Below, piece after piece: positions 24,112 through 46,922 of a stretch of DNA of 64,000 nucleotides (its first letter is position 1; every line of letters begins with the position of its first letter). The notes under the pieces were generated by a model, which saw nothing but the letters and a program-made list of their open reading frames with translations, made no database searches and was not told where the DNA came from. The DNA comes from an uncultured Gammaproteobacteria bacterium. Its GTDB lineage: Bacteria > Patescibacteriota > Microgenomatia > UBA8517. Location: the NCBI GenBank assembly GCA_965231135.1, contig OZ246419.1:321488-385487 (forward strand), read 5' to 3'. A program made the position numbers and the translations under genes.

Positions 24112-24830
24112 GCATAATTATTGTTAATTTTAAAACGGATAAATTGGTTGCTGATTGTGTTGCCTCAATCAAAAAAAATACAAAAGTGAAACATGAAGTG
24201 ATTGTTATTGATAACAGTATTGATAATAAAGGGTTTGCAAAGGCAAATAATATCGGAATTGATAAAGCAAAAGGGAAATATGTTTTGCTTTTGAACTCTG
24301 ATACTGTTGTTAAAAAAAATGCGATTGATAAACTTCTAGAGTTTGCAAAAACAAAAGATGATGCCGGAGTTATTGCTCCAAAACTTTTAAATAAAGACGG
24401 AAGTGTTCAAGATTCTGTTTTTTATTTCCCAACAATAGTCAATGCAATAAAAGAATTTTGGTTTGGCCAGAAAGGACTATTTGGTTTGTATGTTCCAAAA
24501 GTTAATGAACCAATTGAAGTTGATGCAGTTGTTGGTGCTGCCTTTTTAATTACACCAAAAGCACTTGAGAAAGTTGGTAAATTAAATGAAAAATATTTTT
24601 TTTATTATGAGGATTTAGATTATTGTAGGGAAATTTGGAAAAGCGGACTTAAAGTTTACTATTTGCCTGATGCCGAAGTAATTCATTTGAAAGGTGCAAG
24701 CGGAAAAAGTTTGGCTAATGAAGATCAGCAATGGAAAAGATTAATTCCTTCAAGTAAAATTTATAATGGATTAGTTAAATATTATATTTTGTTTTTTATT
24801 ATGTGGATTGGACAAAAGATAGGAAAATGA
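24102..24830 (+). CDS. GT2 glycosyltransferase
   Basis: 242 aa. LSIIIVNFK, VIVIDNS, GFAKANNIG, LLNSDT, GAAFLI and YEDLDY motifs are present. Confidence 0.85.
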   Translation: MELSIIIVNFKTDKLVADCVASIKKNTKVKHEVIVIDNSIDNKGFAKANNIGIDKAKGKYVLLLNSDTVVKKNAIDKLLEFAKTKDDAGVIAPKLLNKDGSVQDSVFYFPTIVNAIKEFWFGQKGLFGLYVPKVNEPIEVDAVVGAAFLITPKALEKVGKLNEKYFFYYEDLDYCREIWKSGLKVYYLPDAEVIHLKGASGKSLANEDQQWKRLIPSSKIYNGLVKYYILFFIMWIGQKIGK

Positions 24831-25387
24831 AAAATGCACTAATTATTCATGGAGTTTGTGACGAAGAAGAATATTTTAATGAAAAATATCCATCTCTTTC
24901 TAATTCTCATTGGTTTCCTTGGCTGCAAAAACAATTATTAATAAAAAATATTTTTACCCAAACTCCGGAAATGCTAGAGCCTTGGAAATTAGATTATTCA
25001 AAATGGAAAGAAGTATTTGAGAAGTTCGACGTAAATGAAAATTCTATTTTGATAGGTCATAGTTGTGGTGCAGGATTTTTAGTTAGATGGCTTTCTGAAA
25101 ATAAAAAATATATAGATAAGTTAATTCTGGTTGCACCTTGGATAGATCCAAACCAGAAATGGTCAAAAGATTTTTTTAATTTTGATATAGATCTTGGTAT
25201 GACCGATCGTGTAAATATAATTCATATTTTATTTTCTAAAGACGATGATCAAGATATATTAAAATCATTTGAGATAATAAATAAAGTCTTAATAAATGCG
25301 AAAATACATGAATTTAAAGATAAAGGCCATTTTACATTGGAGGATATGAAAACAGATAAATTTCCAGAGCTTTTAGAATTAATATGA
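24803..25387 (+). CDS. small alpha/beta serine hydrolase (YdeN/RBBP9-like)
   Basis: 194 aa. GHSCG nucleophile elbow (ILIGHSCGAGFL). Size and layout match the roughly 190-aa Ser_hydrolase family. Confidence 0.55.
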   Translation: MDWTKDRKMKNALIIHGVCDEEEYFNEKYPSLSNSHWFPWLQKQLLIKNIFTQTPEMLEPWKLDYSKWKEVFEKFDVNENSILIGHSCGAGFLVRWLSENKKYIDKLILVAPWIDPNQKWSKDFFNFDIDLGMTDRVNIIHILFSKDDDQDILKSFEIINKVLINAKIHEFKDKGHFTLEDMKTDKFPELLELI

Positions 25388-27075
25388 AAATATTTAAAAA
25401 TTCAAAATTAATTTTAGTTGGAGTATTAATAATTGCTTTTATTTTAAGAATTTATCAAATAGATAAAGTTCCTGTAAGTCTTTTTGGGGATGAACTTGAT
25501 TTGGGTTATCAGGCATATTCAATCTTGCATACTGGCAAAGATTATTATGGAAACTCATGGCCTCTACAATTTCATTCGATTGCTGAATATCGAACGCCCC
25601 TTTATTTATATTCTGCTGTGCCGACAGTTGCAATTTTTGGAATTTCTCCGCTTGGAGTAAGACTTCCGGCTGTAATTTTTGGATTGCTGGGAATTTGGGC
25701 CCTTTATTTATTAACTAAAGAATTAACAAAACGAGAAGACCTAGCGTTAGTTGCTGCAGCAGTCTTAACTTTTTCTCCATGGGATTTACAATATTCAAGA
25801 GCTGGTTTTGAAGTTACAGAATTACTTTTCTTTTTGATAATTGGACTTTACTTTTTCTTTAAGGCAATTAATGGCAAAGGGAAATATTTATGGATTAGTG
25901 TAATCTGTTTTATTATTTGTCCCTGGATTTATAGTACAGCAAAACTTTTTATCCCGATTTTGTTTGTGTTTTTATTTGTTGTTTATTTTAAAGAAATTTT
26001 TAAATTAAATCGAAAATATATTATTTATACAATTATTGCAGGACTTTTGATGGGATTGCCTCTTACTTATTCAATTTTAAAAACTCCACAAAGATTTGAT
26101 TATATCAGCGTTTTTAGTGATTCAACAATGCAGGGAAATATCGGAACTTTGAGAGAGCGAGATCTTGCGATGGGAGAAAGCAGTTTTGTTGCAAAGATTT
26201 TTGAAAATAAATTTACATATTTGGGGAAAGAAGTTCTAGAGCATTATGGACAAACTTTGTCTGCTGATTTTTTCTTTAACCAAGGAGATCCAAATTTGAG
26301 ACAGTCGCCAACTGGAATGGGGGAGTTTTATAAAATTGAAGCAGTTTCAATGATTGCAGGAATTGTTTTATTTTTTGCGCTATACAAAGACAAAAAGGCA
26401 AAACTGTTAATTGGATTTTGGGTAGTTGTTGGAGTTCTTCCGTCTGCATTAACTCGTGACGGAGGAAATCATGCAACAAGACTTATTTTAATTTTGCCGC
26501 CATTAACGTTTTTAATTGCTTATGGAATTGTTGAAGGCATTAAATTATTCAAAGGAAATTACAAGAAACTGGCTCTGATTTTTTATGTAGGAGGTTTTTT
26601 GCTTTGTTTTGCAATGTATATTCATAATTATTACGTGCATTATCCCTGGGATAGCGAGATTTGGTGGCATGCTGGATACCAAGAAGCGATAACTGATGTA
26701 AAAAATTTACAAAAAAATTATAAAACTGTTGTTATTTCGACAGCGAACGAACCGCCTTGGATATTTTTTGCCGCTTGGTATCCTTATCCGCCAGCAGACT
26801 GGCAAAAGAATTTTCCAATTGGAAATGATGTCGAATTAAAGGGTTTTGGAAAAGTTTCTCATATTGATAAGTTTTATTTTGGAACACCAGAAGATTCTGG
26901 AATTTATAACATTGGTAAAGATCTTAGTCCACAAACTTTATATCTTGCTGATGCAAAAGAAAGCAATGTCGATTTTATAAAAGAACCAAATCGTGTACCG
27001 AAAGATTTAGTACTTCTAAAAGCAATTGCATATCCATCTGGAGAACCTGCGTTTTACATTTTTACTGGGAAATGA
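25384..27075 (+). CDS. ArnT/PMT-like GT-C membrane glycosyltransferase, paralog family A
   Basis: 563 aa. Loop reads LFGDELDLGYQAYSILHTGKDYYGNSWPL...RLPAVIFG. About 11 TM helices and a C-terminal soluble domain. Confidence 0.75.
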   Translation: MKIFKNSKLILVGVLIIAFILRIYQIDKVPVSLFGDELDLGYQAYSILHTGKDYYGNSWPLQFHSIAEYRTPLYLYSAVPTVAIFGISPLGVRLPAVIFGLLGIWALYLLTKELTKREDLALVAAAVLTFSPWDLQYSRAGFEVTELLFFLIIGLYFFFKAINGKGKYLWISVICFIICPWIYSTAKLFIPILFVFLFVVYFKEIFKLNRKYIIYTIIAGLLMGLPLTYSILKTPQRFDYISVFSDSTMQGNIGTLRERDLAMGESSFVAKIFENKFTYLGKEVLEHYGQTLSADFFFNQGDPNLRQSPTGMGEFYKIEAVSMIAGIVLFFALYKDKKAKLLIGFWVVVGVLPSALTRDGGNHATRLILILPPLTFLIAYGIVEGIKLFKGNYKKLALIFYVGGFLLCFAMYIHNYYVHYPWDSEIWWHAGYQEAITDVKNLQKNYKTVVISTANEPPWIFFAAWYPYPPADWQKNFPIGNDVELKGFGKVSHIDKFYFGTPEDSGIYNIGKDLSPQTLYLADAKESNVDFIKEPNRVPKDLVLLKAIAYPSGEPAFYIFTGK

Positions 27076-27449
27076 AATTGGGGAATAAAAATAAGTTTGT
27101 AAAAGGAAATATAAAAGATAATTCTGTAAAAGGTTATTTTGTTGGGAGATTTTTGGATGATAAAGGATTTCCATTACAGGAAACAGATGAAGTAGAAATT
27201 GCATGGAAAAAGTTAGGACCAGAAGATAGTTATGTTGAAGGCCATTATCATAAAGGCGGAGTTGAAATTAATATAGTTATTGACGGCAGTTGTTCGATGG
27301 TTGTAAATAAAATAAAAGTTGAGCTAGTAAGAGGAGAATTCTTAATTGTATACCCGGAATCCATTTTGAGTAATTTTGAGGTTAAAGAAAGTGTTGAAAT
27401 GATTGTGGTGAAAGCTCCTAGTGTTTTTGATGATAAATTTAGTGTTTAA
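27072..27449 (+). CDS. small cupin-fold protein (possibly FdtA/WxcM-like sugar isomerase)
   Basis: 125 aa. EGHYHKGGVEINIVIDGS...LVRGEFLIVYPES two-motif cupin pattern. The size matches single-domain cupins. Confidence 0.45.
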   Translation: MKLGNKNKFVKGNIKDNSVKGYFVGRFLDDKGFPLQETDEVEIAWKKLGPEDSYVEGHYHKGGVEINIVIDGSCSMVVNKIKVELVRGEFLIVYPESILSNFEVKESVEMIVVKAPSVFDDKFSV

Positions 27450-29208
27450 GAGTTTTTGGATTAGTTTCTACAATTCTTAAATCAACATCTCCATCTGGAT
27501 AGTTTATTTGTTTTATTAAAGTTAAATTGTGTTCTTTGATTTGTTGCAAGGAAATTGCAAGTTCATCTCCAATTAGATATTGTTTAACTAATAAATCATG
27601 TTGCCAATCAATCGGACGAGTTGTTATTTTATTTCCATTTGGAACTTCTATAATTTTGTTTTTATTTCTTGTCATATTTGTATAATATTCGTTTAATGGT
27701 ACTTCGAAATTTTCTTTTTGATAAATTACTGGATCTGCTTTTAAGAAAAATGCTAATTGAATATATGGTTCGTTTCGAGAATTATCTACAACTATTGGTA
27801 AATTTTGAGAGTAACCATCGCTTTGCGATGTAAAAGTTTTGATGATATTTGTTGCTTGTTGCCATCCATAATCCCAATCTTCTCCTCTGTAATGTTCATT
27901 TAAGATAATTACTGAACTATATAATTTTAGTAGAGAGTAAATAATTACAAAGATAAAAGTTAGCCAAAAAATAAATTTATAATTTTTATTTTTCACGGAC
28001 GAAGTCCCGCAAGCTTTGCTTATTTTGTTATAAATTTCTACAATGCTTAGTGCTATTAAAATATTTAATGGAATTACCATTTGCAATGATCGGATTGTTG
28101 AATAAGGATCTCGAGTTAGTGCAGCAGGGATTGGCGCGATTAATAAAAATGATATGACAAAAAATCTTAGTTCCTTTAATTCTTTTTTCTTTACTATTAA
28201 ATATAATCCATAAATATAAAAAGGAAATTGCCAGACAAAAAAAGTTGCAAGCTCTGGAAAAGAACTCCTTGGGCCAGAATCACCAAGAATAAACATTTCT
28301 CGAGGAGAAAAATAAGAAACATATAAAGAACCAAATTCCTGTAATGATAGAAAGATTTTGGAATTTATTATAAAGCCAAATGGTCCTTTGTAGTTTTCAA
28401 TAAACCCTGCGGATTCTTTGACAGTAAAAATATTTAAACCACCCGCTCTTGCTAGAAAACCAGGAGTTGTGGCGATGGATAAAGTTGGTAAGGTAATAAT
28501 GAAGCCAATAGTTCCAGCAATTATTATATATTTAAAATATTTTTTAGAAAACAAAGTTTTTCTGAAACGAATAATAAGAATTAAAATCATTAGAGGGGTA
28601 ACGATTCTTTGTGCATGATATGCAGGAAGCGCAATTGCGAAAAAAAGCGCTGATAAAATTAATAATTTGGGACGATGTGATTTGTAAGCAGAGCTTGTCT
28701 TGCCTATGGCAAGATAAAAAAATAAACAGCCAGTCAAAAAGAAAAATAATGCTACATTGCATTCAAAATTGGTGCGGCCAAACAAAATGTGCCAGGGAGA
28801 AATTGCTAAAAGCAAACAAGTAATTGATGAAAGCAAAAAATGAGTTTTCTTTTCCTTTTGTGGAATTAATTCTTCAAGTAGCAAATACAAAACTGGAAAA
28901 GTGAGCATACTAAAAAAGAAGGAAGGAAAACGGACAGTAAAAGTTGTTAAACCAAAAATTGGGATTAATGGAACTATTAAATATATATAAACTGGAGTTT
29001 TAAAATCTGTGAAACTTCTAAAAACTATCGGAAAAGATCTGCCAAATTCATCTTTGCCTGTTTTTAAAATAGAATATGCCGAGTAGCCTTGACCTGCCTC
29101 ATCAAGATAAAGCCCTGCTGGTGCTTTTCCTAATAAATAAAATCTTGTAATAAACGCAAGTAAAATTGCGAGACTAAAAATTAAGAATGGTAAATATTTC
29201 TTTATCAT
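27439..29208 (-). CDS. ArnT/PMT-like GT-C membrane glycosyltransferase, paralog family A (inverted copy)
   Basis: 589 aa. LDEAGQGYSAYSILKTGKDEFGRSFPI...RFPSFFF, multi-TM with a C-terminal soluble domain. Confidence 0.75.
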   Translation of the reverse strand: MIKKYLPFLIFSLAILLAFITRFYLLGKAPAGLYLDEAGQGYSAYSILKTGKDEFGRSFPIVFRSFTDFKTPVYIYLIVPLIPIFGLTTFTVRFPSFFFSMLTFPVLYLLLEELIPQKEKKTHFLLSSITCLLLAISPWHILFGRTNFECNVALFFFLTGCLFFYLAIGKTSSAYKSHRPKLLILSALFFAIALPAYHAQRIVTPLMILILIIRFRKTLFSKKYFKYIIIAGTIGFIITLPTLSIATTPGFLARAGGLNIFTVKESAGFIENYKGPFGFIINSKIFLSLQEFGSLYVSYFSPREMFILGDSGPRSSFPELATFFVWQFPFYIYGLYLIVKKKELKELRFFVISFLLIAPIPAALTRDPYSTIRSLQMVIPLNILIALSIVEIYNKISKACGTSSVKNKNYKFIFWLTFIFVIIYSLLKLYSSVIILNEHYRGEDWDYGWQQATNIIKTFTSQSDGYSQNLPIVVDNSRNEPYIQLAFFLKADPVIYQKENFEVPLNEYYTNMTRNKNKIIEVPNGNKITTRPIDWQHDLLVKQYLIGDELAISLQQIKEHNLTLIKQINYPDGDVDLRIVETNPKTLKH

Positions 29209-29924
29209 TTAAGTAAGATAATTCGTGTTATTTCAAAACAGGCAAATACAATGAAAATAATTTGGTAATATTTTGCATATTTAAAATTTTTATCAAAAAC
29301 ACTTAATCCATAAATAATTATTATTGATAATGGTAGCCATAAAATAAAATCGTTTCTATCGAAATTTGTTACTAAACTAAGATTAATAATTGCAGCAAAT
29401 AAAAATGAGAGTAGTATTTTTTTGTGTTTAAAATTTTTTATGAAATATAATCCCACTAATAAAAATAGCAATGAAAGAAACGGAAATTTTTTTAGATTTT
29501 GATTGTCTAATGATATTTGCCTTGGCGCGAAACCAAAAAAATAATTATTTGGGTCGATTAATGCAAAAAAGTTATTTTCAAATTTTGTGACTGGAATTTG
29601 TAGTTTGTTTTGGAATAATCTTGCTGTAAAAATATTTGGATATAATTTTTGTTCTTGTAAAATCTTCTGCTGACTTTGGTAATCAAAAGTAAAAATTGAC
29701 TGACCGAAAAATGGTCTAAAAAATATTATTAAAGGGATTAAAGAAATCAAAAGTAGTTTCGGTTTTTTGAATTGGAAATATATTAATACAAATAAAAGAG
29801 GCAAAATTGCGAATTTTGGATCAAGAGGTAGTAAATAATGAGTAAAATCTTTGAAAGTATTATTTACAAATAAGAAGAGTGGCCAAGTAATTAAAATTAA
29901 AAAGATACCAATTTTTCGTAGCAT
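29205..29924 (-). CDS. small polytopic membrane protein, unknown function
   Basis: 239 aa with about 6 hydrophobic helices. Overlaps upstream gene 27439-29208 by 4 nt on the same strand. Confidence 0.45.
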   Translation of the reverse strand: MLRKIGIFLILITWPLFLFVNNTFKDFTHYLLPLDPKFAILPLLFVLIYFQFKKPKLLLISLIPLIIFFRPFFGQSIFTFDYQSQQKILQEQKLYPNIFTARLFQNKLQIPVTKFENNFFALIDPNNYFFGFAPRQISLDNQNLKKFPFLSLLFLLVGLYFIKNFKHKKILLSFLFAAIINLSLVTNFDRNDFILWLPLSIIIIYGLSVFDKNFKYAKYYQIIFIVFACFEITRIILLK

Positions 29925-29948
29925 TAGTGATACAATTTTATCAGAGAT

Positions 29949-31163
29949 ATGATTAAAAAGCTGAGCTTGATATTTTTACTTGCTTTAATAATTAGGTTGG
30001 TACTTATCTCTGTAGCATTTCATGGAGATTTGTATAACAACTTATCCTGGGGGCAGATGGCATTAAAAGGTCTAAATGGGTTTTACGAAAGAAAAGGCTT
30101 TGCATATTCCATTCCCAATCAGCCGCCATTGTACATTTTACTTTTTGGATTTACGTCTTTTATATATCAAACAATTTATAATTTAAGCTGGTATTTAAAT
30201 AATCATTTTGGATTTTTCCCATCAGCTTTCATATGGTTTTGGCAACAAAATGGAAATGTCATTTTACTTAAACTTCCTGGAATTTTTGCTGATTTGGGAA
30301 TCGGTTTTCTAATTTACAAATTTACAAAAAAAATATATTTGACTTGTCTTTGGCTTTTTAATCCAATTAGTTTTTATAACTCTGCAATTTGGGGGCAAAC
30401 TGACTCGGTTGTAAATTTATTCGGACTTATTTCTATTTTTTATTTATTCAAAAAAGATTTGGTTAAATCAGTTTTGTTTTTTGTAATTTCTATTTTATTT
30501 AAAGGATCTTTGACAATATTTTTGCCAGTATTAATAGTTGTTTGGATTTTGCAGAAACATAAAATTAACGATTGGATGAAAGCAATTATAATTTCTGGAA
30601 TATTTACAGTAATTGTTTCTATATGGTTTCACCCAGAAATTAATTTGCCAATTTGGTTACTTAATTTATATACACAAAGATTTTTTCCTGGCGAAATTGG
30701 GTACTTAACTGCAAATGCATTTAATTTATGGTATTTAGTAAATCCAGGAAAAATTTTAGATAATACTAAATATTTTGGTGTTACGGCCCATGTAATTGGA
30801 TATTTAATAAGTTTAATTTTGGGAATTATTTTAATTTATAAAAAGAGAAAAAGTTTATTAAAAGAAAAAACGATTTTAATAATGCTTGCAATCAGTGCTT
30901 TAATTTCATTTTTGTTCTTTACAAGAATTCACGAGAGATATCTATATCCACTTTTTCCGATTGCAACTATTTTGGTTGGATTAATTCCTGAATTTATAAT
31001 TCCTTATGTGATTTTGTCGTTTGTGTTTTTACTTAATATGTATAATCTTTTTTGGGTTCCATCAATTCCTTTTTTGCAAAATATTATGATGACATCTCAA
31101 TTGCCAACTATATTGAGTGCTGTTAATTTAATTATTTTTATTGGAGTGTTTGTTTACGTATAA
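29949..31163 (+). CDS. polytopic membrane protein, GT-C-like (ALG6/ALG8-like first-loop motif)
   Basis: 404 aa. Loop FHGDLYNNLSWGQMALKGLNGFYERKGFAYSIPNQPPLYILLF resembles the GDxEAxRxW...W.LDYPPL loop of ALG6/ALG8-type GT-C enzymes. About 11 TM helices. Confidence 0.5.
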   Translation: MIKKLSLIFLLALIIRLVLISVAFHGDLYNNLSWGQMALKGLNGFYERKGFAYSIPNQPPLYILLFGFTSFIYQTIYNLSWYLNNHFGFFPSAFIWFWQQNGNVILLKLPGIFADLGIGFLIYKFTKKIYLTCLWLFNPISFYNSAIWGQTDSVVNLFGLISIFYLFKKDLVKSVLFFVISILFKGSLTIFLPVLIVVWILQKHKINDWMKAIIISGIFTVIVSIWFHPEINLPIWLLNLYTQRFFPGEIGYLTANAFNLWYLVNPGKILDNTKYFGVTAHVIGYLISLILGIILIYKKRKSLLKEKTILIMLAISALISFLFFTRIHERYLYPLFPIATILVGLIPEFIIPYVILSFVFLLNMYNLFWVPSIPFLQNIMMTSQLPTILSAVNLIIFIGVFVYV

Positions 31164-31196
31164 GCGAAGCTTGTAAATTTCATTTATAATTAATTA

Positions 31197-32798
31197 ATGT
31201 GGAAATGGTTTTTAGTTGTAATATTTTTATTGGGATTTTTGTTTCGCGTTATTGGGATTTCTAATCACCCTGCTGGGTTTACTCCTGATGAGGCTTCTTT
31301 TGGATATGATGCCTATTCAATTTTAAAAACTGGTAAAGATCAGTGGGGGAATACTTTACCTTTGGTTTTTAAGTCTTTTGGAGACGACAAATTACCAGCT
31401 TATGTTTATTTAACAATTCCAAGTGTTGCAGTTTTTGGCCTTAATGAGTTTGCTGTCAGGCTTCCAAATGCGATTTTGGGAACGCTAGCAATCCTTGTTG
31501 TTTATTTACTTGTTGAAGAAATTTTTAAAGATAAAAGATTATCATTGCTTTCTGCTCTTTTATTTGCAATATCTCCGTGGAGTATTATGCTCTCGCGAGG
31601 TGCTTTTGAAGCAAATTTGACAACGTTTTTTCTGCCACTTGGAATTTTGTTTTTCTTAAAATCTTTAAAGAATAGACGATATTTGTTATTATCGTTTTTA
31701 GTTTTTTTAGTTAATATTTTTACTTATCATACTGCTAGAATTTTAACTCCATTAATATTTTTCTCCTTACTTTTTATTTATAAAAACGAATTAAAAGACA
31801 AAAAGATATTCAATATTAGCTTAGTTTTGTCTAATATAGTTTTATTTGTTGCTGCGGCTGGTTTTTTAATTGGTGGAAGTAGAGTTGCGAGTTCTTCAAT
31901 TGCGGATATTAATTTTGCAGATGATAGATATTTTGCTCAAGTTGTTGGAGAACCATCTATAATTTCAAAAGTTTTTTACAATAAACCGATTTATGTTTCT
32001 ATCCAATTTGTAAAAAATTATTTATCTTATTTTTCACCACAATTTTTATTTACAAATGGGCCTGCGGAAGGAACATATGGTATGGTTCCTGGAATTGGGG
32101 TTTTGTATTTTGTAGAAGTATTATTTTTAACTGGATTTGTTTGGAGCTTTTTCAAAGAAGGGCAGAAAAAGGAAATTTTATTTTTATTATTTTGGATTTT
32201 AATATCTCCAATTCCAGCTGCATTAACTAAAGGTCCTGGATATGCGGCAAATAGATCTGAATTTGTAATGCCGGCCATCCAGATAGTTTTAGCAATTGGT
32301 GGCTTTTATATTTATGAAAATTTGAAGAATAAAAAATGGAAAAATTATTTTATTTATGGAATGACTATTTTGTTTTTGATTAACTTTATTTATGTGTTTG
32401 AAAAATATTGGATTGGACAAACTGTCAATCAGGCATCTGACATGATTTATGGTACATCGCAAATTGTAAACAATTTGAAAAGTACAAACGCAAAACAAAT
32501 AATGGTTGCAAAGGATATTTCTGAACCGCAAATTTACTTTGCGTTTTATACAAAAATGGACCCAAGGATTTACCAACAGTTTTCTAAGAATTGGCAATTA
32601 ATTAATGGCTGGGTGGACCAACAAGGAAGTTACAAATTGGCAAATTATACTTTTAGAGATATTAATTATAATGTTGATAAAAATTTACAAAATACAATTT
32701 TGATTGGCAAACCAAATGACTTTCCAGCTGACAGTAAACCAACTTTGCAAATAAATTATCCAAATTTAAAACCAGCATATTATATTTTTAATGAATAA
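31197..32798 (+). CDS. ArnT/PMT-like GT-C membrane glycosyltransferase, paralog family A
   Basis: 533 aa. PDEASFGYDAYSILKTGKDQWGNTLPL...RLPNAILG. Confidence 0.75.
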   Translation: MWKWFLVVIFLLGFLFRVIGISNHPAGFTPDEASFGYDAYSILKTGKDQWGNTLPLVFKSFGDDKLPAYVYLTIPSVAVFGLNEFAVRLPNAILGTLAILVVYLLVEEIFKDKRLSLLSALLFAISPWSIMLSRGAFEANLTTFFLPLGILFFLKSLKNRRYLLLSFLVFLVNIFTYHTARILTPLIFFSLLFIYKNELKDKKIFNISLVLSNIVLFVAAAGFLIGGSRVASSSIADINFADDRYFAQVVGEPSIISKVFYNKPIYVSIQFVKNYLSYFSPQFLFTNGPAEGTYGMVPGIGVLYFVEVLFLTGFVWSFFKEGQKKEILFLLFWILISPIPAALTKGPGYAANRSEFVMPAIQIVLAIGGFYIYENLKNKKWKNYFIYGMTILFLINFIYVFEKYWIGQTVNQASDMIYGTSQIVNNLKSTNAKQIMVAKDISEPQIYFAFYTKMDPRIYQQFSKNWQLINGWVDQQGSYKLANYTFRDINYNVDKNLQNTILIGKPNDFPADSKPTLQINYPNLKPAYYIFNE

Positions 32799-34314
32799 AC
32801 TTCTAAAGAGAAATTCTATTATAATTCTACTTCTTATAATCTTATTTATTCCAACTTTTTATCAAATGCTTCGTTTCGGAATGTTTTCGACCCAGGATTT
32901 TCATATTTTTAGACTTATAGAATTTGATAAATGCATACAATCTTTGCAAATTCCTTGCAGATGGGCACCTGATAGTGGGGCTGGATTTGGAGAACCGCTG
33001 TTTAATTTTTATGGACAATTTGTATATGTGGCAGGAGAGATTATACATAAACTGACATTTTCGTTTATAGATTCAATAAAAATTACTTTCATTTTGTCAT
33101 TAGTTCTCTCTGGAATTGGAATGTTTTTTTTAGCCAAAAAAATTTGGGGAAATAATTTGTCAGCATTAGTTTCTTCAATAATATATCTATATGCTCCTTA
33201 TCGAGCAGTTGATGTTTGGGTGCGAGGGGCGCTTCCTGAAGCTTTTGCCTTTGTATTTTTCCCTCTTATTATTTTGGAAATCGAAAATTATTTAGAAAAA
33301 AATAGAACAAAAGATTTGTTAATTTTTAGTTTATTGTTTTCATTTTTAATTATTACTCATAATTTATCAGTAATTTTATTTGCACCATTTTTGATTGTTT
33401 GGATAATATTTAGATTTTTGCAAATTAGAAAGATTAAACCATTTATTTATTTGTTTATTGCTGGAATTTTTAGTGGAATTTTATCAGCATTTTATTTGTT
33501 ACCGGTTGCGACTGAAAGTAAGTTTATAAATCTTAATGCAACAACTACCGGAATTTATGATTGGAGAGCAAATTTTGTCACGATCTATCAATTGTTTATT
33601 TCTAGATTTTGGGGATATGGAGGGTCTACCTGGGGACCAAACGACGGACTTTCATTGTCTGTTGGACAAATACAATGGATTGTACCAGCAATTACTGGAG
33701 TAATTATCTTAATAAAACAAAAAACAAAGTTTACAAAAGATAATTTAGTTTTTACTGTTTTGGTTTTAATAGGAATTTTTGCATTATTTATGACACATAA
33801 TAAATCGACCTTTATCTGGAACATTTTACCGTTTATGAAATATATTCAGTTTCCTTGGAGATTCTTGTCTACAGCAACTTTTTCATTTGCACTTGCGAGC
33901 GGCTTAATAATTAAGCAATTTGAAATTGTAAGGTTACAATTTTTGTCTGTGATTATTGTCGTAGTAGTAACAATTTTATTGAATTTTAGTTTTTTTAAAC
34001 CTGATATTTGGTACTCTAAAGGAGATAGTTATTATTTGACTGGATCTTTTTGGAATGAAGAACAGTTTTCTTCACTTCCTGATTATTGGCCTAATTTTGG
34101 ACATAAGTTTCCTGATAAAATCTCTGATGGAAAGTATATTAATTACTTTCCAGGTTGGAATTATAAACCTGACAAGAATGGGCTTATTTCATCAGAAGGA
34201 GCAGTATTTGGTAATACATCAACGAGAACGATTGGAAATTATACAAGTTTATTTGCAATTTTGGTTTGGATAATTTTATTTGTAAAATTTAAATATGTTA
34301 GCAAAGATTCTTAA
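32791..34314 (+). CDS. large polytopic membrane protein, putative GT-C-like, paralog family C
   Basis: 507 aa. QIPCRWAPDSGAGFGEPLFNFYGQFVY loop, homologous to ORF 12517-14271. Confidence 0.6.
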   Translation: MNKLLKRNSIIILLLIILFIPTFYQMLRFGMFSTQDFHIFRLIEFDKCIQSLQIPCRWAPDSGAGFGEPLFNFYGQFVYVAGEIIHKLTFSFIDSIKITFILSLVLSGIGMFFLAKKIWGNNLSALVSSIIYLYAPYRAVDVWVRGALPEAFAFVFFPLIILEIENYLEKNRTKDLLIFSLLFSFLIITHNLSVILFAPFLIVWIIFRFLQIRKIKPFIYLFIAGIFSGILSAFYLLPVATESKFINLNATTTGIYDWRANFVTIYQLFISRFWGYGGSTWGPNDGLSLSVGQIQWIVPAITGVIILIKQKTKFTKDNLVFTVLVLIGIFALFMTHNKSTFIWNILPFMKYIQFPWRFLSTATFSFALASGLIIKQFEIVRLQFLSVIIVVVVTILLNFSFFKPDIWYSKGDSYYLTGSFWNEEQFSSLPDYWPNFGHKFPDKISDGKYINYFPGWNYKPDKNGLISSEGAVFGNTSTRTIGNYTSLFAILVWIILFVKFKYVSKDS

Positions 34315-35980
34315 CATTAAGTTTTTAATAATAATTGTTTTGTTTGGAGCATTTTTGAGATTTACATCTTTAAATCAAATGCCTCCTGCTCTTAATTGGG
34401 ATGAAATTTCTCACGGATATAATGCTTATTCTATTTTGAAGACAGGAAAAGACCAATGGGGACAACTATTTCCGATTGCAAATTTTAGAGCCTATGGAGA
34501 TTACCCACTTCCTCTTAATCTTTACTTAACTATTCCTTTTGAAATTGTTTTTGGACTTTCCCAGACTTCAATTCGCTTACCGCAGGCGTTACTCGGAACA
34601 CTGACAATTGTTTCGGTTTATTTTTTGGCTGAAGGAATATCTAAAAATAAAAAAATATCATTACTTGCAGCTTTTTTAACAGCAATAGATCCATGGTTTT
34701 TATTTCCATCGCGTGCTGTTTTCCAATCTAACTTGTCCGTATTTTTTTTGATAACTGCATTATCGTTTTTCTTTAATCGAGAAAAGAATAAATGGTTTAT
34801 TGTTTTTACTCATTTGTGTTTAGGTCTCACACTTTATTCTTATCATTCAACTAGAATTTTCACTCCAATATTGATTGTTATTTTGTTATTTATTTATAAG
34901 GAAGAATTTATAAATCATTTAAAAAACATTTTTAAAAAGCGAGAAATTCTGATTTCTTGTTTATTATTTATGATTTTTTTCTTACCACTTCCTTTTATCT
35001 TGCTTAGTCCGTCGGCGAGGGCTCGTAGCGGTGTTGTTTTTATTATTGATCAAGGAGCTGTGAATAATATAAATAATTTAAGAAATTCTTCTACTTCTCC
35101 TTTTCGAAAATTAATTTATAACAAAGTTACATATTTTACAGTTACATTTGCAAAAAACTATGTTAATTATTTCTCTCCACAATTTTTATTTACTAATGGG
35201 GGAACTCAATATCAATTTAGCGTTCCAAATCAAGGAATACTTTATCTTGTTACATTGCCGTTTTTGTATTTTGGATTTTTTATTCTAATAGTTCGTGCTT
35301 TTAGAAATAGAGATTATTTGTTTTTACTTTTGTGGCTTCTTTTAGCACCAATTCCTGCTGCAATTACAGTCGATGCATCAGCAGTAATTAGAGCGACAAC
35401 AATGCTTCCAATTCCTGAAATATTAATTGCAATTGGGTTTTATGAATTTATTAATAAATTTAAGAAGTATGAGTTTATTTTAAGTTTTGGTTTTATTATA
35501 GTTTTACTTTTTTCCCTTGAGAATTATTTAAATATTTATGCAAATAGCTATCGGACAAATTATTCTTGGGCTTGGCAATATGGATACGAACAGGCAGTAG
35601 ATTATGTAAAAGCAAATTATCATAATTATGATCAGATTATTACTACAAAAGCTTACGGAGAGCCTCATGAATTTTTCTTATTTTATTTACAATATGATCC
35701 GCAAAAATATTTAAGTGATCCAAATAAAATTACTTTTTATCAATCAAATTGGTATTGGGTGGATCATTTTGATAAATTCTGGTTTGTAAATGATTGGCAA
35801 GTTACGCAATTTGCAAATAAAAATCAATTTATAACTGAAAGCAAACATGTTACTGATTGTTCAAGTCAGAGATGTCTACTGATAACAACACCAAACAATC
35901 ATCCTGGGAACTGGAAATTAATTGATACTATAAAATTCTTGGATGGGAAGACTGCTTTTGAGATATATTCTAATACATAA
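34295..35980 (+). CDS. ArnT/PMT-like GT-C membrane glycosyltransferase, paralog family A
   Basis: 561 aa. WDEISHGYNAYSILKTGKDQWGQLFPI...RLPQALLG. Confidence 0.75.
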   Translation: MLAKILNIKFLIIIVLFGAFLRFTSLNQMPPALNWDEISHGYNAYSILKTGKDQWGQLFPIANFRAYGDYPLPLNLYLTIPFEIVFGLSQTSIRLPQALLGTLTIVSVYFLAEGISKNKKISLLAAFLTAIDPWFLFPSRAVFQSNLSVFFLITALSFFFNREKNKWFIVFTHLCLGLTLYSYHSTRIFTPILIVILLFIYKEEFINHLKNIFKKREILISCLLFMIFFLPLPFILLSPSARARSGVVFIIDQGAVNNINNLRNSSTSPFRKLIYNKVTYFTVTFAKNYVNYFSPQFLFTNGGTQYQFSVPNQGILYLVTLPFLYFGFFILIVRAFRNRDYLFLLLWLLLAPIPAAITVDASAVIRATTMLPIPEILIAIGFYEFINKFKKYEFILSFGFIIVLLFSLENYLNIYANSYRTNYSWAWQYGYEQAVDYVKANYHNYDQIITTKAYGEPHEFFLFYLQYDPQKYLSDPNKITFYQSNWYWVDHFDKFWFVNDWQVTQFANKNQFITESKHVTDCSSQRCLLITTPNNHPGNWKLIDTIKFLDGKTAFEIYSNT

Positions 35981-36614
35981 AAGGAATTAAAGATTTAACT
36001 TTTTTCTTGTAACTTGGATACGTTTTTGGGAAATGTTTTTGTAATAATTTTTCTTCTTCTTTTAGTTTATAAATACAAAAGATTGTCATAAATATTAAAA
36101 ACAATAAGCTTGCTAAATTTCTTGCTGCAAGAAAAGTTCCAGTACACATCGTAATAATTCCTGTATAAATTGGATTTCTAATAATTCCATAAACCCCTGA
36201 AGTTATGAGTTCGTGATTCTTTTTTATTTCAATATTGCCGCTCCAGTTTTTGGATAAAGTATTTCTTGCAATGATTGCAATTACTAGACCAATAAAGACA
36301 GTAACGGAACTCGCAAAAATAAAAGAATTGGATACTAAAAATAATTCATTGGATAAAAAGGGGATAGCTCCTGAAAAACTAATTATAAAAAGTGCGATAA
36401 AAAATATTCTTCCTGCCCAGAGCCAACCTTTTGTGAAAGATTGTTTCATTTCTTTGGTTGGTTTTACATTTTGTGCGCTTAATTTCCAATATAGAAGAAA
36501 AATAATCCAATAAAGAGTTATTAGTTTTCCACTTATCATATGAAAAATTATAGCAGATAGAATATACTTAAATATGCCTAAAAAATGGGTTTTGATTATT
36601 GTTGTTTTAGCCAC
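35970..36614 (-). CDS. ICMT/PEMT-family membrane methyltransferase (isoprenylcysteine carboxyl / phospholipid methyltransferase-like)
   Basis: 214 aa, 4-5 TM. C-terminal LITSGVYGIIRNPIYTGIITMCTGTFLA matches the ICMT/PEMT SAM-binding region. The annotated start overlaps divergent gene 36574 by 41 nt. An internal Met at about 36539 is a more likely start. Confidence 0.7.
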   Translation of the reverse strand: MAKTTIIKTHFLGIFKYILSAIIFHMISGKLITLYWIIFLLYWKLSAQNVKPTKEMKQSFTKGWLWAGRIFFIALFIISFSGAIPFLSNELFLVSNSFIFASSVTVFIGLVIAIIARNTLSKNWSGNIEIKKNHELITSGVYGIIRNPIYTGIITMCTGTFLAARNLASLLFLIFMTIFCIYKLKEEEKLLQKHFPKTYPSYKKKVKSLIPFMY

Positions 36615-38211
36615 TGCTTTGTTTTTGAGGCTTTATAAAATTAATACAAACCCTCCGGGATTAACTCCTGATGAGGCCGCACTTAGTTATAATGCTTATT
36701 CAATTTTAAAAACTGGCAAAGACGAATATGGAACTTTTTTGCCAATTATTTTTAAATCGTTTGGGGATTACAAACCCGGGCTTTATGTATATTTAGATAT
36801 TCCTTTTGTTGCGACTTTGGGACTCAACGAAACCTCTGCAAGATTGCCATCTGTAGTCGCAGGAATTTTTACCGTCTATTTGGTTTATTTAATTACTGAA
36901 GAATTGTTTAAAGATAAGAGACTTGCTTTTATTTCTTTGGTTGTTGCTGCAACCAATCCCTGGCTTATTTATTTTTCAAGAGGAGCTTGGGAAGTAAATG
37001 TTTGTTTAACACTAACACTTGCTGGGATTTATTTTTTCTTAAAAGCGTTAAATAAAAATCAAAAATATTTTATCGTATCTGCGATATTTTTTGCATTAAC
37101 TCTAATAGATTATCAGGGAGCAAAATTATCGACTGCAATAGTTTTGTTTATTTTGGGAATCTTATATTGGAAACAAGTTTTAAAATTAAAATTTAAGTAT
37201 TTAACTATAGCTTTTATTTTAGGGCTCATTATTTCGTTACCTGTAATTTTAAGTTTGTTTAATGGCCAAAGCGGAAGGCTTGCAGTTTTCAGTGTATTTT
37301 CATACCCGCGCCCGGCAGATTATTTGCAAGCGTTTTTGAGTGAGGCAAATGTTAAGAAGGGGAGTATAACTTATGATCTTTTTTATAATGAGCCGCTTAA
37401 TTTTGCTAGAGGAATTTTAGGAAGATTTTTCAATCATTTTTCCGGACGATTCTTGTTTTTTGAAGGGGATTGGGCAAACCCAAGGCATACTCCCCCAAAC
37501 CAGGGAGTACTGGTTGTTGGAGATATAATGTTTCTCGCGATTGGGGCAATTGCGTTTCTGAAAAACAAAGTACAAAAAGAAACTATATTTATAGTTTTAT
37601 GGTTAATACTTGCACCACTCCCATCAATACTTTCCCGCGATCAAGTGCACGCGCTTCGTTCTTTAAATCTTGCAATACCGTTTGTAATAATTATTACTTT
37701 TGGAATTTATTTTGCGATTAATAATTTAAGAAAAGTATTTTTATTTTTGTTAATTCCGATTTATATTGCAACTTATATTTATTTTTTGGATGCTTATTTT
37801 GTACATCAACCTGCACATAATTCGCAATATTGGGAATATGGATATAAACAAATGGTATCGGATGTTACAGCAATTCAAAACAACTACAAACAGGTAATTA
37901 TTCAGCAATCATATGATCAGCCGTATATTTATTTTCTTTTTTATAATAAATATAATCCTGCAAAATGGCAAAAGCAGGCAAAACTTATACAGGATGCTGG
38001 AGCTGATGTTGGGCATGTGGATCATATGGATAATATTTGTTTTTGTGCAATTGATTGGTCGCGGGACCGTGGAGATCATGGAGATTTAGTTGTTGGAGAT
38101 ATTTCTGTAATTCCGCCACTGGACTCCAATGATCCAAAAGAATTTACTTTAATTGATGAGATAAAATATTTAAATGGACAAACTGCTTGGAGGCTTTTGG
38201 GAGTGAAATGA
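36574..38211 (+). CDS. ArnT/PMT-like GT-C membrane glycosyltransferase, paralog family A
   Basis: 545 aa. PDEAALSYNAYSILKTGKDEYGTFLPI...RLPSVVAG. Confidence 0.75.
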   Translation: MPKKWVLIIVVLATALFLRLYKINTNPPGLTPDEAALSYNAYSILKTGKDEYGTFLPIIFKSFGDYKPGLYVYLDIPFVATLGLNETSARLPSVVAGIFTVYLVYLITEELFKDKRLAFISLVVAATNPWLIYFSRGAWEVNVCLTLTLAGIYFFLKALNKNQKYFIVSAIFFALTLIDYQGAKLSTAIVLFILGILYWKQVLKLKFKYLTIAFILGLIISLPVILSLFNGQSGRLAVFSVFSYPRPADYLQAFLSEANVKKGSITYDLFYNEPLNFARGILGRFFNHFSGRFLFFEGDWANPRHTPPNQGVLVVGDIMFLAIGAIAFLKNKVQKETIFIVLWLILAPLPSILSRDQVHALRSLNLAIPFVIIITFGIYFAINNLRKVFLFLLIPIYIATYIYFLDAYFVHQPAHNSQYWEYGYKQMVSDVTAIQNNYKQVIIQQSYDQPYIYFLFYNKYNPAKWQKQAKLIQDAGADVGHVDHMDNICFCAIDWSRDRGDHGDLVVGDISVIPPLDSNDPKEFTLIDEIKYLNGQTAWRLLGVK

Positions 38212-39860
38212 TTAAAAAATACAAAAATTTAATTTTAGTTGCAATTATTGTTTTAGCTTTTGTACTTAGATTTTGGCAACTAAACAATTATCCAGCGCTT
38301 AATGCTGATGAAGCATCCAATGGATATGATGCGTATTCATTACTTCTTACAGGAAAAGATCAACATGGAAACAGTTGGCCAATTGATTTTCAATCATTTA
38401 ATGATTATAAACCTGGGCTTTATGTTTATTTAATAATGCCTTTTGTCAAGATATTGGGACTTAACGAATGGGCAGTAAGGATTCCTGGAGCTTTTGTTGG
38501 AGTAATTTCTGTTTATTTAATTTATTTACTAGTGAAAGAATTATTTAAAAGAGATGGTGTAGCTCTAGTTTCTGCTTTCTTTCTGTCGATTTCTCCGTGG
38601 CATATTCAGTTTTCAAGAGGCGGTTGGGAAGTAAATGTTGCAACATTTTTGATAACCGCTGGAGTTTTATTTTGGCTTAAATATTTTAATGGTAATCAAA
38701 GAAAACTCTGGCAATTAATTTTAAGTATAATTCTTTTTGTTTTATCAATGTACTGTTATCAGGCAACAAGAGTTGTGACGCCGCTTGTTGGAATTGGTTT
38801 GGTAGTTATTTATTGGAAACAAATTTGGAAAAATTTATCACATGTGATGACTGTGATTGTTTTGGGAATTGTTTTACTTTTGCCTCTTCTTTTAGATTTT
38901 ACACATGGAGGAGTTTTAAATAGAGCTGCAGGAGTTGGACTTTTTGCAGACCCAGGGCCCAGAAGCCGTGTTGAAGAACAACGAGGAGAACATGGAGCAG
39001 ACAGTAATAGTTTTATTGTCAAGGCGTTACATAATAAAGTTGTAAATTATACTCTTGCTTTTGCAGAAAACTGGATGAGTCATTTCCACGGCGAATTTTT
39101 ATTCCTTTCCGGAGATTCAGTGACGCGTAATAAAGTTCCTGAAACTGGAGAATTTTATTTAACTGATATTGTTTTTTTAACAATTGGTGGAGTAATTATC
39201 TTGCGAACTTTAAAGAAAAAGGAAACACAGATTCTAGTTATGTGGATTATTGTTGGGCCGATTGCTTCTGCTCTTACTTTTCAGGCACCGTCTGCGCTTC
39301 GGGCTGAAAATATTGTAATACCACTAGTAATTATCAGCGCTCAAGGCGCTATTGGCTTAGGTATTTACTTGTACAAATTACTGCAAAATAAAATCTTATT
39401 TAAGATTAGTATTTTATTTATATTCGCACTTGTGATTTGGGGATTTGCAAGATATGAACAGATGTATTGGAACCACATGAGTAAAGAATATCCTTACTCA
39501 TCTCAGTATGGAGTGAAAGAACTTGTGAGTTATATAGAGCAAAGTCAGGATAAATACTCTAAAATATTAGTCACAGACCGATATGATCAGCCGTATATTT
39601 TATTTTTATTCTATATGAAATATCCGCCGGCAAAGTTTCAACCACAAAGCACACTTGGGCCAAAGGACCAATATGGATTTTCGACAGTTAACCATTTTGA
39701 TAAATATTATTTTGCAAGTATTGATTTTGAAAAAGCAAAAACAGAAAATCCAAATAGTTTGATTGCAGGAACAGCTGACGAAATTCCAAAAGAAGCAAAT
39801 ATTGTAAAAGATGTTTATGGAACAAATGGATTTTTGTATTTTAGAGTGGTAGCTAATTAA
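38187..39860 (+). CDS. ArnT/PMT-like GT-C membrane glycosyltransferase, paralog family A
   Basis: 557 aa. ADEASNGYDAYSLLLTGKDQHGNSWPI...RIPGAFVG. Overlaps the previous gene by 25 nt. Confidence 0.75.
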   Translation: MEAFGSEMIKKYKNLILVAIIVLAFVLRFWQLNNYPALNADEASNGYDAYSLLLTGKDQHGNSWPIDFQSFNDYKPGLYVYLIMPFVKILGLNEWAVRIPGAFVGVISVYLIYLLVKELFKRDGVALVSAFFLSISPWHIQFSRGGWEVNVATFLITAGVLFWLKYFNGNQRKLWQLILSIILFVLSMYCYQATRVVTPLVGIGLVVIYWKQIWKNLSHVMTVIVLGIVLLLPLLLDFTHGGVLNRAAGVGLFADPGPRSRVEEQRGEHGADSNSFIVKALHNKVVNYTLAFAENWMSHFHGEFLFLSGDSVTRNKVPETGEFYLTDIVFLTIGGVIILRTLKKKETQILVMWIIVGPIASALTFQAPSALRAENIVIPLVIISAQGAIGLGIYLYKLLQNKILFKISILFIFALVIWGFARYEQMYWNHMSKEYPYSSQYGVKELVSYIEQSQDKYSKILVTDRYDQPYILFLFYMKYPPAKFQPQSTLGPKDQYGFSTVNHFDKYYFASIDFEKAKTENPNSLIAGTADEIPKEANIVKDVYGTNGFLYFRVVAN

Positions 39861-39861
39861 T

Positions 39862-40758
39862 ATGGATAAAATGAAATTAAGTGTTGTACTTGCTGTCAGA
39901 AATGAAGAGGCAAACTTGGCTAATTGCTTAGAATCTATAAAGGCAATTGCAGATGAGATTGTAATTGTTGATGAACATTCGACTGATAAAACTGTTGAAA
40001 TTGCCAAAAAATTTAAAGCACGAGTTTATGAAGAGCCTCACCATGAAATATTTCATATAACAAAGCAAAAAGCTTTAGATTATGCAAAAGGAGAATGGAT
40101 TTTGCAGCTTGATGCTGATGAAATAATAACTTCTGAACTTCGCGAAGAAATAGAAAAGATAATTAAAGCTGATAATTTGGAGTTAGATGAAAAAACTGAA
40201 GCAAAATTTAATGATCCTAAAAATAGTAAAAAAGCTAAATTATTTTTGAGACATCAACGTATACTTGAACAAAGAGATGGTTCAGTTGATGTAATGAACG
40301 GCGAAATTGCCGCATTTTTTATTCCTAGAGTAAATTTATTCCTCGGTAAGCCATTAATACATGCCGGAGTTTATCCAGATCCTGCGATTAGATTAGTAAG
40401 AAAAGGTAAGGCTCATTTTGGATTAAAGTCTGTTCATGACATAATGCAAATTGATGGGAGAGTTTCTTGGCTTTTTAATGATATGCTTCATAATGATTCT
40501 CCAACTTTGAATAAATATGTAATGAGGTTAAATCGTTATACAGATTTGCATGCAGAAGAATTAAAAGAAAAACATGCACCTAAAAATTTACTCTATTTGG
40601 CTTACTATTCTTTTTACAATTTCGTCATAAAGTTTTCAACTTTGTGGCTTCGCCATAAAGGATATGAGGATGGGATAAGAGGGTTTTTGTGGAGTATGTT
40701 TTCTGCTTGGCATTTTCCAATTGCCTATTTTAAATATTGGACTGGAGATAATTTATGA
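39862..40758 (+). CDS. GT2 glycosyltransferase (KdtX/WaaE-like subgroup)
   Basis: 298 aa. LSVVLAVRNEEANLANCLESIKAIADEIVIVDEHSTD...QLDADE. Confidence 0.8.
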   Translation: MDKMKLSVVLAVRNEEANLANCLESIKAIADEIVIVDEHSTDKTVEIAKKFKARVYEEPHHEIFHITKQKALDYAKGEWILQLDADEIITSELREEIEKIIKADNLELDEKTEAKFNDPKNSKKAKLFLRHQRILEQRDGSVDVMNGEIAAFFIPRVNLFLGKPLIHAGVYPDPAIRLVRKGKAHFGLKSVHDIMQIDGRVSWLFNDMLHNDSPTLNKYVMRLNRYTDLHAEELKEKHAPKNLLYLAYYSFYNFVIKFSTLWLRHKGYEDGIRGFLWSMFSAWHFPIAYFKYWTGDNL

Positions 40759-46914: not shown

Positions 46915-46922
46915 CTATTAAG

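Follow-up and report, generated by a model that had tools for sequence, protein, structure and literature searches.

Six ancient GT-C glycosyltransferase paralogs form a conserved gene array in Microgenomates-group Patescibacteria and are candidate enzymes of surface glycan assembly

We analyzed a 64,000-nucleotide stretch of contig OZ246419.1 (assembly GCA_965231135.1, positions 321,488 to 385,487; hereafter the window) and observed that six genes between positions 25384 and 39860 encode full-length paralogs of one GT-C glycosyltransferase family. The six are ancient, and they are kept as an ordered array in related genomes of Microgenomates-group Patescibacteria. We favor the reading, with a probability of about 60%, that each paralog carries out a distinct extracytoplasmic step in the assembly of one surface glycan, with a polyprenyl-phosphate sugar as donor. 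The genomes of Patescibacteria are tiny, their cell surfaces are for the most part unexplored, and a life in attachment to other cells is presumed for them. That a six-paralog set is kept gene for gene across candidate phyla speaks for the importance to these bacteria of a complex, conserved surface glycan. With its predicted catalytic residues and paralog-specific regions, the array also delimits a set of candidate enzymes for biochemical study. In the literature searched, we found no published description of a conserved multi-GT-C array in Patescibacteria, which is absence of evidence only.

The six open reading frames (ORFs) lie at 25384-27075 (A1, + strand, 563 amino acids (aa)), 27439-29208 (A2, - strand, 589 aa), 31197-32798 (A3, + strand, 533 aa), 34295-35980 (A4, + strand, 561 aa), 36574-38211 (A5, + strand, 545 aa) and 38208-39860 (A6, + strand, 550 aa). 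A6 most likely starts at ATG 38208 and not at TTG 38187, which would give 557 aa, because a GGAG lies 5 nt upstream and the ATG overlaps the A5 stop codon by 4 nt (ATGA). The same start is called in locus L001. SRR12170514 yielded a 5.6-kb contig whose sequence is identical to that of the A5/A6 segment. An earlier sequence-only reading of this DNA had described the six as paralogs of an ArnT/PMT-like type, and our comparisons confirmed all six ORFs (533-589 aa) as full-length homologs. Paralog pairs were 28-36% identical over ~490-600 aligned residues (pairwise BLASTP, E 1e-49 to 1e-109), so homology covers the whole protein, membrane cores included, and is far beyond chance. A six-paralog profile searched against the window ORFs retrieved exactly these six at 690-790 bits, and the next ORFs reached no more than 45 bits. 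One copy is inverted, as had been noted; this is A2, also the least conserved of the six. The description of four members in direct tandem was loose. Only A5 and A6 abut; between A3 and A4 stands an unrelated GT-C gene (32791-34314), and between A4 and A5 a minus-strand PEMT/ICMT-like gene (35970-36614).

We observed a common motif in extracytoplasmic loop 1, DE-x4-Y-x-AYS-x-L-x-TGKD, in 6/6 paralogs (nt 25489-25542 in A1, 29050-29103 in A2, 31287-31340 in A3, 34400-34453 in A4, 36670-36723 in A5 and 38307-38360 in A6), and the six loop-1 strings quoted earlier were all exact. An R[LFI]P element was likewise present in 6/6. The glycine that had been placed after it in every copy stands seven residues on in five; A2 has a serine.

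We compared ten related loci (L002-L007, L009, L010, L012, L014). Six, all from metagenome-assembled genomes (MAGs), came from a genome-collection scan: one is from Woesebacteria, one from Blackburnbacteria, and four bear the title 'uncultured Gammaproteobacteria' or 'uncultured bacterium'. The other four came from contigs encoding close or representative homologs. A metagenome scan seeded with A3 peptides returned one irrelevant locus only (L008). A1 and A3-A6 each had one clear ortholog wherever a locus covered the position, and their order was kept. Ortholog identity was 46-78% for A1 (L002, L004, L005, L009, L014), 42-70% for A3 (9/9 loci covering the position), 41-71% for A4 (10/10) and 49-70% for A6 (10/10); A5 orthologs were present in 10/10 loci. 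Overall, orthologs were 41-57% identical in distant genomes and 62-78% in close ones (L009, L010, L012), compared to 28-36% between paralogs. Orthogroups A1, A3, A4, A5 and A6 were each monophyletic in 100/100 bootstraps of a neighbor-joining tree. The constant gene order was A1 - (A2 module) - 29949 - A3 - 32791 - A4 - A5 - A6, where numbers are gene starts in the window, followed by GT2 - GT4 - PIG-V-like - Wzx - GT2 - GT4 - DUF5667. The phylogeny and locus comparison proposed with the sequence-only reading returned, for A1 and A3-A6, one-to-one orthogroups in constant order across ten related loci where covered. NCBI taxonomy places Woesebacteria and Blackburnbacteria in the Microgenomates group as two distinct candidate phyla. 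Since monophyletic orthologs occur in both, the sequence comparisons indicate that the duplications are older than their split.

Some members of these loci were irregular. The A1 ortholog in L004 (1998-3756) is split into two ORFs, and the A5 and A6 orthologs in L006 (10357-12897) are truncated; these are pseudogenes or MAG assembly errors. Three loci (L002, L005, L006) are titled 'uncultured Gammaproteobacteria bacterium' yet carry the Microgenomates-type cluster at 34-41% GC, with DUF5667 in L002 and L005, and their taxonomic labels look wrong.

All six paralogs passed the gathering threshold of Pfam PMT_2 (PF13231, 26.1 bits), with 37.8 (A1), 30.9 (A2), 49.9 (A3), 42.6 (A4), 51.8 (A5) and 47.1 bits (A6). 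The PMT model (PF02366, 22.7 bits) was passed by A3 (30.5), A4 (26.3) and A6 (39.0); A5 (22.1) and A1 (17.0) fell below it and A2 gave no match. No Pfam family beyond GT-C-clan models scored above cutoff in the six, and hence no MIR domain was detected. No NCBIfam model reached its cutoff for the paralogs or their neighbors; the ArnT equivalog PRK13279 gave A5 21.9 bits against a cutoff of 567 and did not match A6. A crude hydropathy count gave 9-12 transmembrane segments. A single-sequence search of the PDB detected no solved structure, and a six-sequence profile search gave marginal matches only (STT3, E 0.018; ArnT, E 1).

A5 was the member chosen for structure modeling. Its AlphaFold2 model, built on 60 sequences, reached a pLDDT of 89.1 and a pTM of 0.90. 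Foldseek returned 33 PDB matches at probability ≥0.91, all of them GT-C enzymes. The best full-length match was ArnT (TM-score 0.55, range 0.54-0.56; probability 1.0; 12% identity), followed at probability 1.0 by AglB, STT3, PglB, ALG9, DPY19, EmbC, Pmt4 and AftA. The Pmt1, Pmt2 and Pmt4 structures aligned over only 265-300 columns (TM-score 0.29-0.31) with no full-length correspondence; the Pmt4 homodimer entry 9i5k gave 0.40. On these data, the six are GT-C class-A (ArnT/PMT/STT3-like) glycosyltransferases and orthologs of neither ArnT nor PMT. The earlier assignment to an ArnT/PMT-like GT-C type with a conserved, catalytic-type DE loop is thus supported by PMT_2 and by the A5 fold. The enzymes already carry generic public annotation and belong to a known superfamily: A5 is a 100% match to the NCBI entry 'glycosyltransferase family 39 protein [Patescibacteria group bacterium]', and the JGI label for homologs is '4-amino-4-deoxy-L-arabinose transferase-like'.

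An acidic pair in extracytoplasmic loop 1 is the GT-C active-site motif (PMC7801869). We observed that the D-E pair at the start of loop 1 (D33/E34 in A5 numbering) is invariant in 6/6 paralogs and conserved in each of orthogroups A3-A6. Across these four orthogroups, which have at least four members each, 40 positions were conserved, 12 of them in loop 1 (0.28 per residue, compared to 0.07 overall). They include D33, E34, D50 and D65 as well as the basic residues R90, R136, R235 and R362. Every universally conserved residue, the D-E pair included, is kept in all six paralogs. We also searched the six-paralog profile against 1.84 billion cluster representatives (clusters at 50% identity) and obtained 6,142 clusters at E ≤1e-30 and 32,180 at E ≤1e-3. 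Among the 150 best family representatives, 103 carried the strict form of the loop motif and 124 the relaxed form. The motif is thus the hallmark of a huge uncharacterized family and not the outcome of local concerted evolution. This family, with more than 6,000 clusters at 50% identity, is without a characterized member or a close solved structure.

Constraint was distributed unevenly along the proteins. Mean identity between paralogs was 0.55 in loop 1, compared to 0.25-0.26 in the long loop (A5 residues 231-315), the C-terminal transmembrane half and the C-terminal alpha/beta domain (A5 residues 421-545). This per-region difference bears out the claim that the loop is conserved while the rest, especially the C-terminal domains, diverges. 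Within orthogroups, identity was 0.57 in the long loop (0.25 between) and 0.53 in the C-terminal domain (0.25 between). The ratio of within- to between-orthogroup identity was above 2 for these two regions and ~1.5 for loop 1 and transmembrane helices 2-7. Because the long loop and the C-terminal domain are conserved within orthogroups, the variable parts are not drifting; they are paralog-specific yet conserved. Such a pattern fits the expectation if these regions set acceptor or linkage specificity. In EmbC, according to one report (PMC3044687), the C-terminal domain is a carbohydrate-binding module and contacts the acceptor. The idea of repeated duplication with diversification of specificity is supported as far as the divergence pattern fits specialization; the duplications are ancient and not recent.

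The sequence-only reading had also treated the array as a substrate for homologous recombination, with possible copy-number or chimera variation between strains. In its full dynamic form, such a reading would have the array recently expanded and a source of surface-glycan variation. DNA-level similarity between paralogs is real, though modest. The block at 31311 matches that at 36694 at 31/38 positions, the blocks at 34418 and 38325 are 63-75% identical over 60 nt, and the motif surroundings overall are 60-75% identical over 60-164 nt. This similarity follows from a strongly constrained loop peptide in an AT-rich genome (window GC ~30%). Third-position identity at identical amino acids was 0.50-0.67, compared to 0.34 expected from composition. 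Across whole genes, paralog DNA identity was 45-53%, the longest identical run was 20 nt, and a codon-column permutation over 15 paralog pairs gave P ≥0.014, with no signal of gene conversion after multiple-test correction. No homopolymer tract was longer than 8 nt and no chimeric paralog copy was seen.

A 20-nt exact match, CTTATTCAATTTTAAAAACT, lies at 26066-26085 and 36695-36714. In A5 it encodes the YSILKT of loop 1; in A1 it encodes a second, out-of-register YSILKT (~aa 229-234) outside the loop-1 motif. We estimate a chance expectation of roughly 2e-3 for such a match in this region.

Differences between genomes were seen at the 5' part of the array. A2 counterparts were only 33-36% identical and were found in L002 and L009, on the + strand; L010 has a minus-strand PMT_2 gene at the A2-equivalent place that runs off the locus (judged by Pfam and position). 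The two genes of the A2 module stand in inverted orientation in the window and apparently in L010, and in direct orientation in L002 and L009; L004 and L014 do not have them. In L005, an additional paralog is present and the 32791-type gene is fused to A4. These rearrangements, together with five copies in the same orientation within 14.5 kb and with an eleventh locus, L015, whose seven-member array lacks one-to-one orthology, are what would favor a dynamic array. However, orthologs are far closer than paralogs, and the order is kept even among relatives that are 63-78% identical. Low DNA identity, short identical runs and conserved one-to-one orthologs remove the basis for a recombination-prone array, a reading that is largely refuted and that we regard as very improbable. 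The variation between genomes is on a deep evolutionary scale and is located at the array 5' end; the array reflects plain paralogy of great age, not the dynamics of a repeat locus.

Details of two of these loci can be added. The L005 fusion (6612-9968) is a single 1,118-aa ORF with a 32791-type N-terminal half (PTPS_related, 45% identical) and an A4 ortholog as its C-terminal half (51%); in the window, the 32791-type gene and A4 overlap by 20 nt. L015, treated apart from the ten loci, belongs to another lineage and carries its seven same-family members in one direction (5787-19665) with a YfhO-type GT-C nearby. None of the seven is a one-to-one ortholog of the window's six (30-36% identical).

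The paralogy, the GT-C fold, the conserved acidic loop, the age and synteny of the array and the region-specific constraint are observations. From them we infer the donor type, the topology, a stepwise division of labor and the nature of the product. In the mechanism that we propose, cytoplasmic GT2 and GT4 enzymes would assemble a lipid-linked precursor, which a Wzx-type flippase would export. Each of the six enzymes would work at the outer face of the cytoplasmic membrane, where the invariant Asp-Glu with which extracytoplasmic loop 1 begins would serve to transfer a sugar from a polyprenyl-phosphate-linked donor. The acceptor would be a distinct position of the growing, flipped, lipid-linked (or already anchored) glycan, selected by the paralog-specific long loop and C-terminal alpha/beta domain. 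The six would thus be non-redundant steps with different linkage or acceptor. Together with an ALG6/ALG3-like, a PTPS-related and a PIG-V-like enzyme, nine GT-C enzymes would elaborate the precursor stepwise into one complex surface glycan or glycoconjugate.

Several points weigh against this proposal. A2, for which clear one-to-one orthologs are lacking, may be dispensable. None of the GT2 similarities to polyprenyl-phosphate sugar synthases reaches its NCBIfam cutoff. Pfam scans of the window found no initiating phosphoglycosyl transferase, no ligase or polymerase and no GtrA-type small flippase. The placement of the C-terminal domain outside the cell comes from fold likeness to ArnT and to oligosaccharyltransferases and not from a direct prediction. 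In addition, several of the steps could act on different products and not on one glycan. More tentatively than the stepwise reading itself, we suggest that Microgenomates-group Patescibacteria may have a deeply conserved, so far undescribed line for the extracytoplasmic assembly of a glycan, with the six at its core. Nine GT-C enzymes of four types, encoded together with Wzx, GT2 and GT4 genes in an operon-like block, would make a lineage-defining envelope glycopolymer or glycoconjugate. If true, this assembly line would take up a large share of a ~0.8-Mb genome.

Other functions for the six have to be weighed against stepwise glycan assembly. We consider it unlikely that they are PMT-type (GT39) protein O-glycosyltransferases, each serving different secreted or surface proteins such as pilins or S-layer proteins. 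The family does resemble PMT enzymes: PMT_2 matches 6/6 and PMT 3/6 (A3, A4 and A6 above cutoff), A5 bears the public family 39 name, Foldseek gave a probability of 1.0 for Pmt1/2 and Pmt4, and the loop-1 DE pair is also the PMT catalytic motif (referred to in PMC7801869). However, A1, A2 and A5 stay below the PF02366 cutoff, and the structural overlap is partial (~270-300 columns, TM-score ~0.3, compared to 0.55 over the full length for ArnT). The context here is glycan assembly and not protein secretion, and the tight, conserved linkage to Wzx, to GT4/GT2 enzymes and to ALG6- and PIG-V-like GT-Cs points to a lipid-linked oligosaccharide (LLO) pathway. A true ArnT-type lipid modification, in which aminoarabinose or a similar group would confer resistance to cationic peptides, is hardly credible, even though ArnT is the best full-length structural match, the JGI homolog label names this activity and an ArnC-like GT2 lies at 52194-53129. 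The NCBIfam ArnT equivalog score and the 12% identity to ArnT are far from orthology, no ArnA/ArnB/ArnD-type gene was found among the 57 window ORFs (Pfam), the one ArnC-like GT2 is 12 kb away, and six conserved paralogs are hard to square with a single lipid modification.

The number of reactions could also be lower than six if the paralogs were obligate hetero-oligomers, as in Pmt1-Pmt2 or EmbA-EmbB, with some copies mainly scaffolding. Both of these heterodimers are among the structural matches, A5 and A6 are neighbors in related loci and are translationally coupled in the window by the ATGA overlap, and the likeness of the protein encoded at 29205-29924, whose gene accompanies A2-type genes, is limited to the non-catalytic central part of the family. 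Nevertheless, all six keep the universally conserved residues, D-E included, so that none looks like a pseudo-enzyme, and a gene of 198-199 aa lies between A5 and A6 in L010 and L012. We judge hetero-oligomers with fewer reactions to be quite improbable and keep the reading of six separate extracytoplasmic steps.

Known systems offer partial parallels to these proposed steps. ArnT (GT83) of Cupriavidus metallidurans (PDB 5EZM/5F15) is of similar size (~540-580 aa) and shares the N-terminal multi-helix membrane core, the acidic loop 1 and a small soluble domain at the C-terminus; the donor of ArnT is a sugar linked to polyprenyl phosphate. ArnT is one gene, whereas six conserved paralogs without arn operon context are found here, and lipid A is not to be assumed as their acceptor. 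The mycobacterial and corynebacterial GT-C sets for arabinogalactan and lipomannan/lipoarabinomannan (EmbC-EmbA-EmbB, AftA-D, MptA/B, PimE) likewise consist of multiple paralogs, some in tandem. These enzymes carry out distinct extracytoplasmic steps with polyprenyl-phosphate sugar donors. In contrast to the six, Emb proteins have ~1,050 aa and large periplasmic domains (10-14% identity and TM-score 0.35-0.42 to A5); they belong to another phylum and show no orthology.

The LLO pathway of the endoplasmic reticulum (ER) lumen (ALG3, ALG9, ALG12, ALG6, ALG8, ALG10, RFT1, DPM1/ALG5) and the glycosylphosphatidylinositol (GPI) mannosyltransferases follow the same logic. There, cytoplasmic GT4/GT2-type enzymes and a MOP/Wzx-superfamily flippase precede a series of GT-C enzymes that use polyprenyl-phosphate sugars. 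The protein at 29949-31163 resembles ALG6/ALG3, that at 41731-42891 matches the PIG-V Pfam model and A5 matches ALG9. The present system differs in being a bacterial, operon-like cluster whose six paralogs are class-A (ArnT/STT3-like) and not ALG-type; sequence orthology was not seen, and the structural-match identities are 11-17%. No STT3/PglB-type oligosaccharyltransferase was identified in the window. Three-component extracytoplasmic glycosylation of the Gtr type combines a GT2 polyprenyl-phosphate glycosyltransferase, a small flippase and a GT-C (PMC11127046). A GT-C beside a DPM1/ArnC/GtrB-like GT2 is found here at 2140-2853/2829-4355, 7396-8880/8864-9643 and 50147-52216/52194-53129, but Pfam scans gave no GtrA-family match and the six-paralog array does not have one GT2 per GT-C.

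We also examined the genes between and around the paralogs. Junctions within the array overlap or are no more than 33 nt apart. A2 shares its inverted module with one other gene, upstream of it, for a small membrane protein of 239 aa (29205-29924, - strand). This protein is remotely homologous to the family's central loop and following transmembrane helices (residues ~210-400; hhalign 94%; hmmsearch with a 42-sequence profile, 23.8 bits, E 1.8e-9), and the catalytic loop 1 is missing. Counterparts of 215-265 aa stand beside A2-type genes in L010 (252-1049, - strand), L009 (1128-1775) and L002 (1414-2100).

The gene at 29949-31163 (+ strand, 404 aa) encodes an ALG6/ALG3/GPI-mannosyltransferase-like GT-C and is a second GT-C type and a conserved array member. 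The protein itself gave no Pfam or NCBIfam match; its homologs carry the JGI name 'Gpi18-like mannosyltransferase' and some carry PF03155. Its AlphaFold2 model (pLDDT 91.8) matched ALG6 (TM-score 0.67) and ALG3 (0.63) in Foldseek. Counterparts were 33-67% identical in nine loci; L007 gave only a 26% partial match, and the gene is duplicated in L004. Between A3 and A4, the gene at 32791-34314 (+ strand, 507 aa) encodes a GT-C of the PTPS_related family (PF10131, 33.8 bits against a threshold of 26.4) that is unrelated to the six. Its orthologs were present in L002, L005 (fused to A4), L006, L007, L009, L010 and L014 and absent from L003 and L004.

The PEMT/ICMT-like membrane methyltransferase at 35970-36614 (- strand, PF04191, 47.4 bits) is 214 aa as listed, and its true start is probably further in. 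No counterpart was found at this position in any related locus, and the gene is a lineage-specific insertion outside the conserved array. Genes of ~200 aa that are mutually unrelated are inserted at differing array junctions in different genomes (L009 7706-8377 and 13223-13843; L010 6235-6846 and 11648-12247; L012 3523-4119; the window 35970-36614). A mobile element was rejected as an explanation for these small genes since they are unrelated to each other.

The conserved block is at least 30 kb long. Downstream of A6, a block on the + strand (39862-47465) encodes a GT2 (39862-40758), a GT4 (40755-41768), the PIG-V-like GT-C (41731-42891), a Wzx-type flippase (42867-44144), a second GT2 (44119-44898), a second GT4 (45793-46914) and a DUF5667 protein (46923-47465). 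The GT2 at 44119-44898 is of the polyprenyl-phosphate-sugar-synthase type, with weak NCBIfam similarities. Two small ORFs at 44895-45752 lie on the - strand inside this block. The block order is the same in L002, L003, L005, L007, L009, L010 and L012. Upstream of A1, a further + strand block (15690-25387) begins with a 561-aa membrane protein of unknown type (15690) and continues with GT2 genes (17749, 18645, 19553), a GT4 gene (20597) and two more GT2 genes (23224, 24102). These genes are syntenic in L014, where synteny reaches upstream to the 15690-type gene, and synteny was also seen in L004. Two genes in this block are genome-specific: one encodes a distant PMT_2-like protein (21656), the other a serine hydrolase (24803). 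A promoter and terminator scan was at or below shuffle expectation and says nothing on operon structure; no tRNA gene or Rfam match was found in the window.

The window as a whole is a glycosylation island and consists almost wholly of genes for glycosylation. Pfam scans of 57 ORFs covering it, together with the comparisons above, gave 17 GT-C-type genes: 13 PMT_2-type (the six and seven more distant ones outside the six-paralog range), two PTPS-related, one PIG-V-like and one ALG6/ALG3-like. The window also encodes 14 GT2 and 4 GT4 enzymes, two Wzx-type flippases (14240-15733 and 42867-44144), several methyltransferases, a polysaccharide deacetylase and an RmlD-GT2 fusion. For the GT2 at 52194-53129, the alignment to ArnC, PgfS and AglJ covers the full length (175 bits); the GT2 at 2140-2853 aligns to ArnC, a dolichyl-phosphate hexose transferase, AglJ and PpgS. 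Both are plausible polyprenyl-phosphate sugar synthases that could supply the GT-C donors.

Some further genes of the island stand out. Two large membrane proteins have no Pfam match: a 584-aa protein (12517-14271), which ortholog alignments indicate is a paralog of the PTPS_related protein at 32791, and the 561-aa protein at 15690-17375 that is syntenic in L014. A 12517-type gene is inserted within the array in L006 and L007. The 689-aa GT-C (PMT_2) at 50147-52216 has a C-terminal F5/8 type C (discoidin, lectin-like) domain and adjoins the ArnC/GtrB-like GT2 at 52194-53129 on the opposite strand. The fusion at 59101-60984 (627 aa) joins an RmlD-type dTDP-4-dehydrorhamnose reductase domain to a GT2 domain. 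The 64-kb window amounts to ~8% of the 810-kb contig (810,692 bp).

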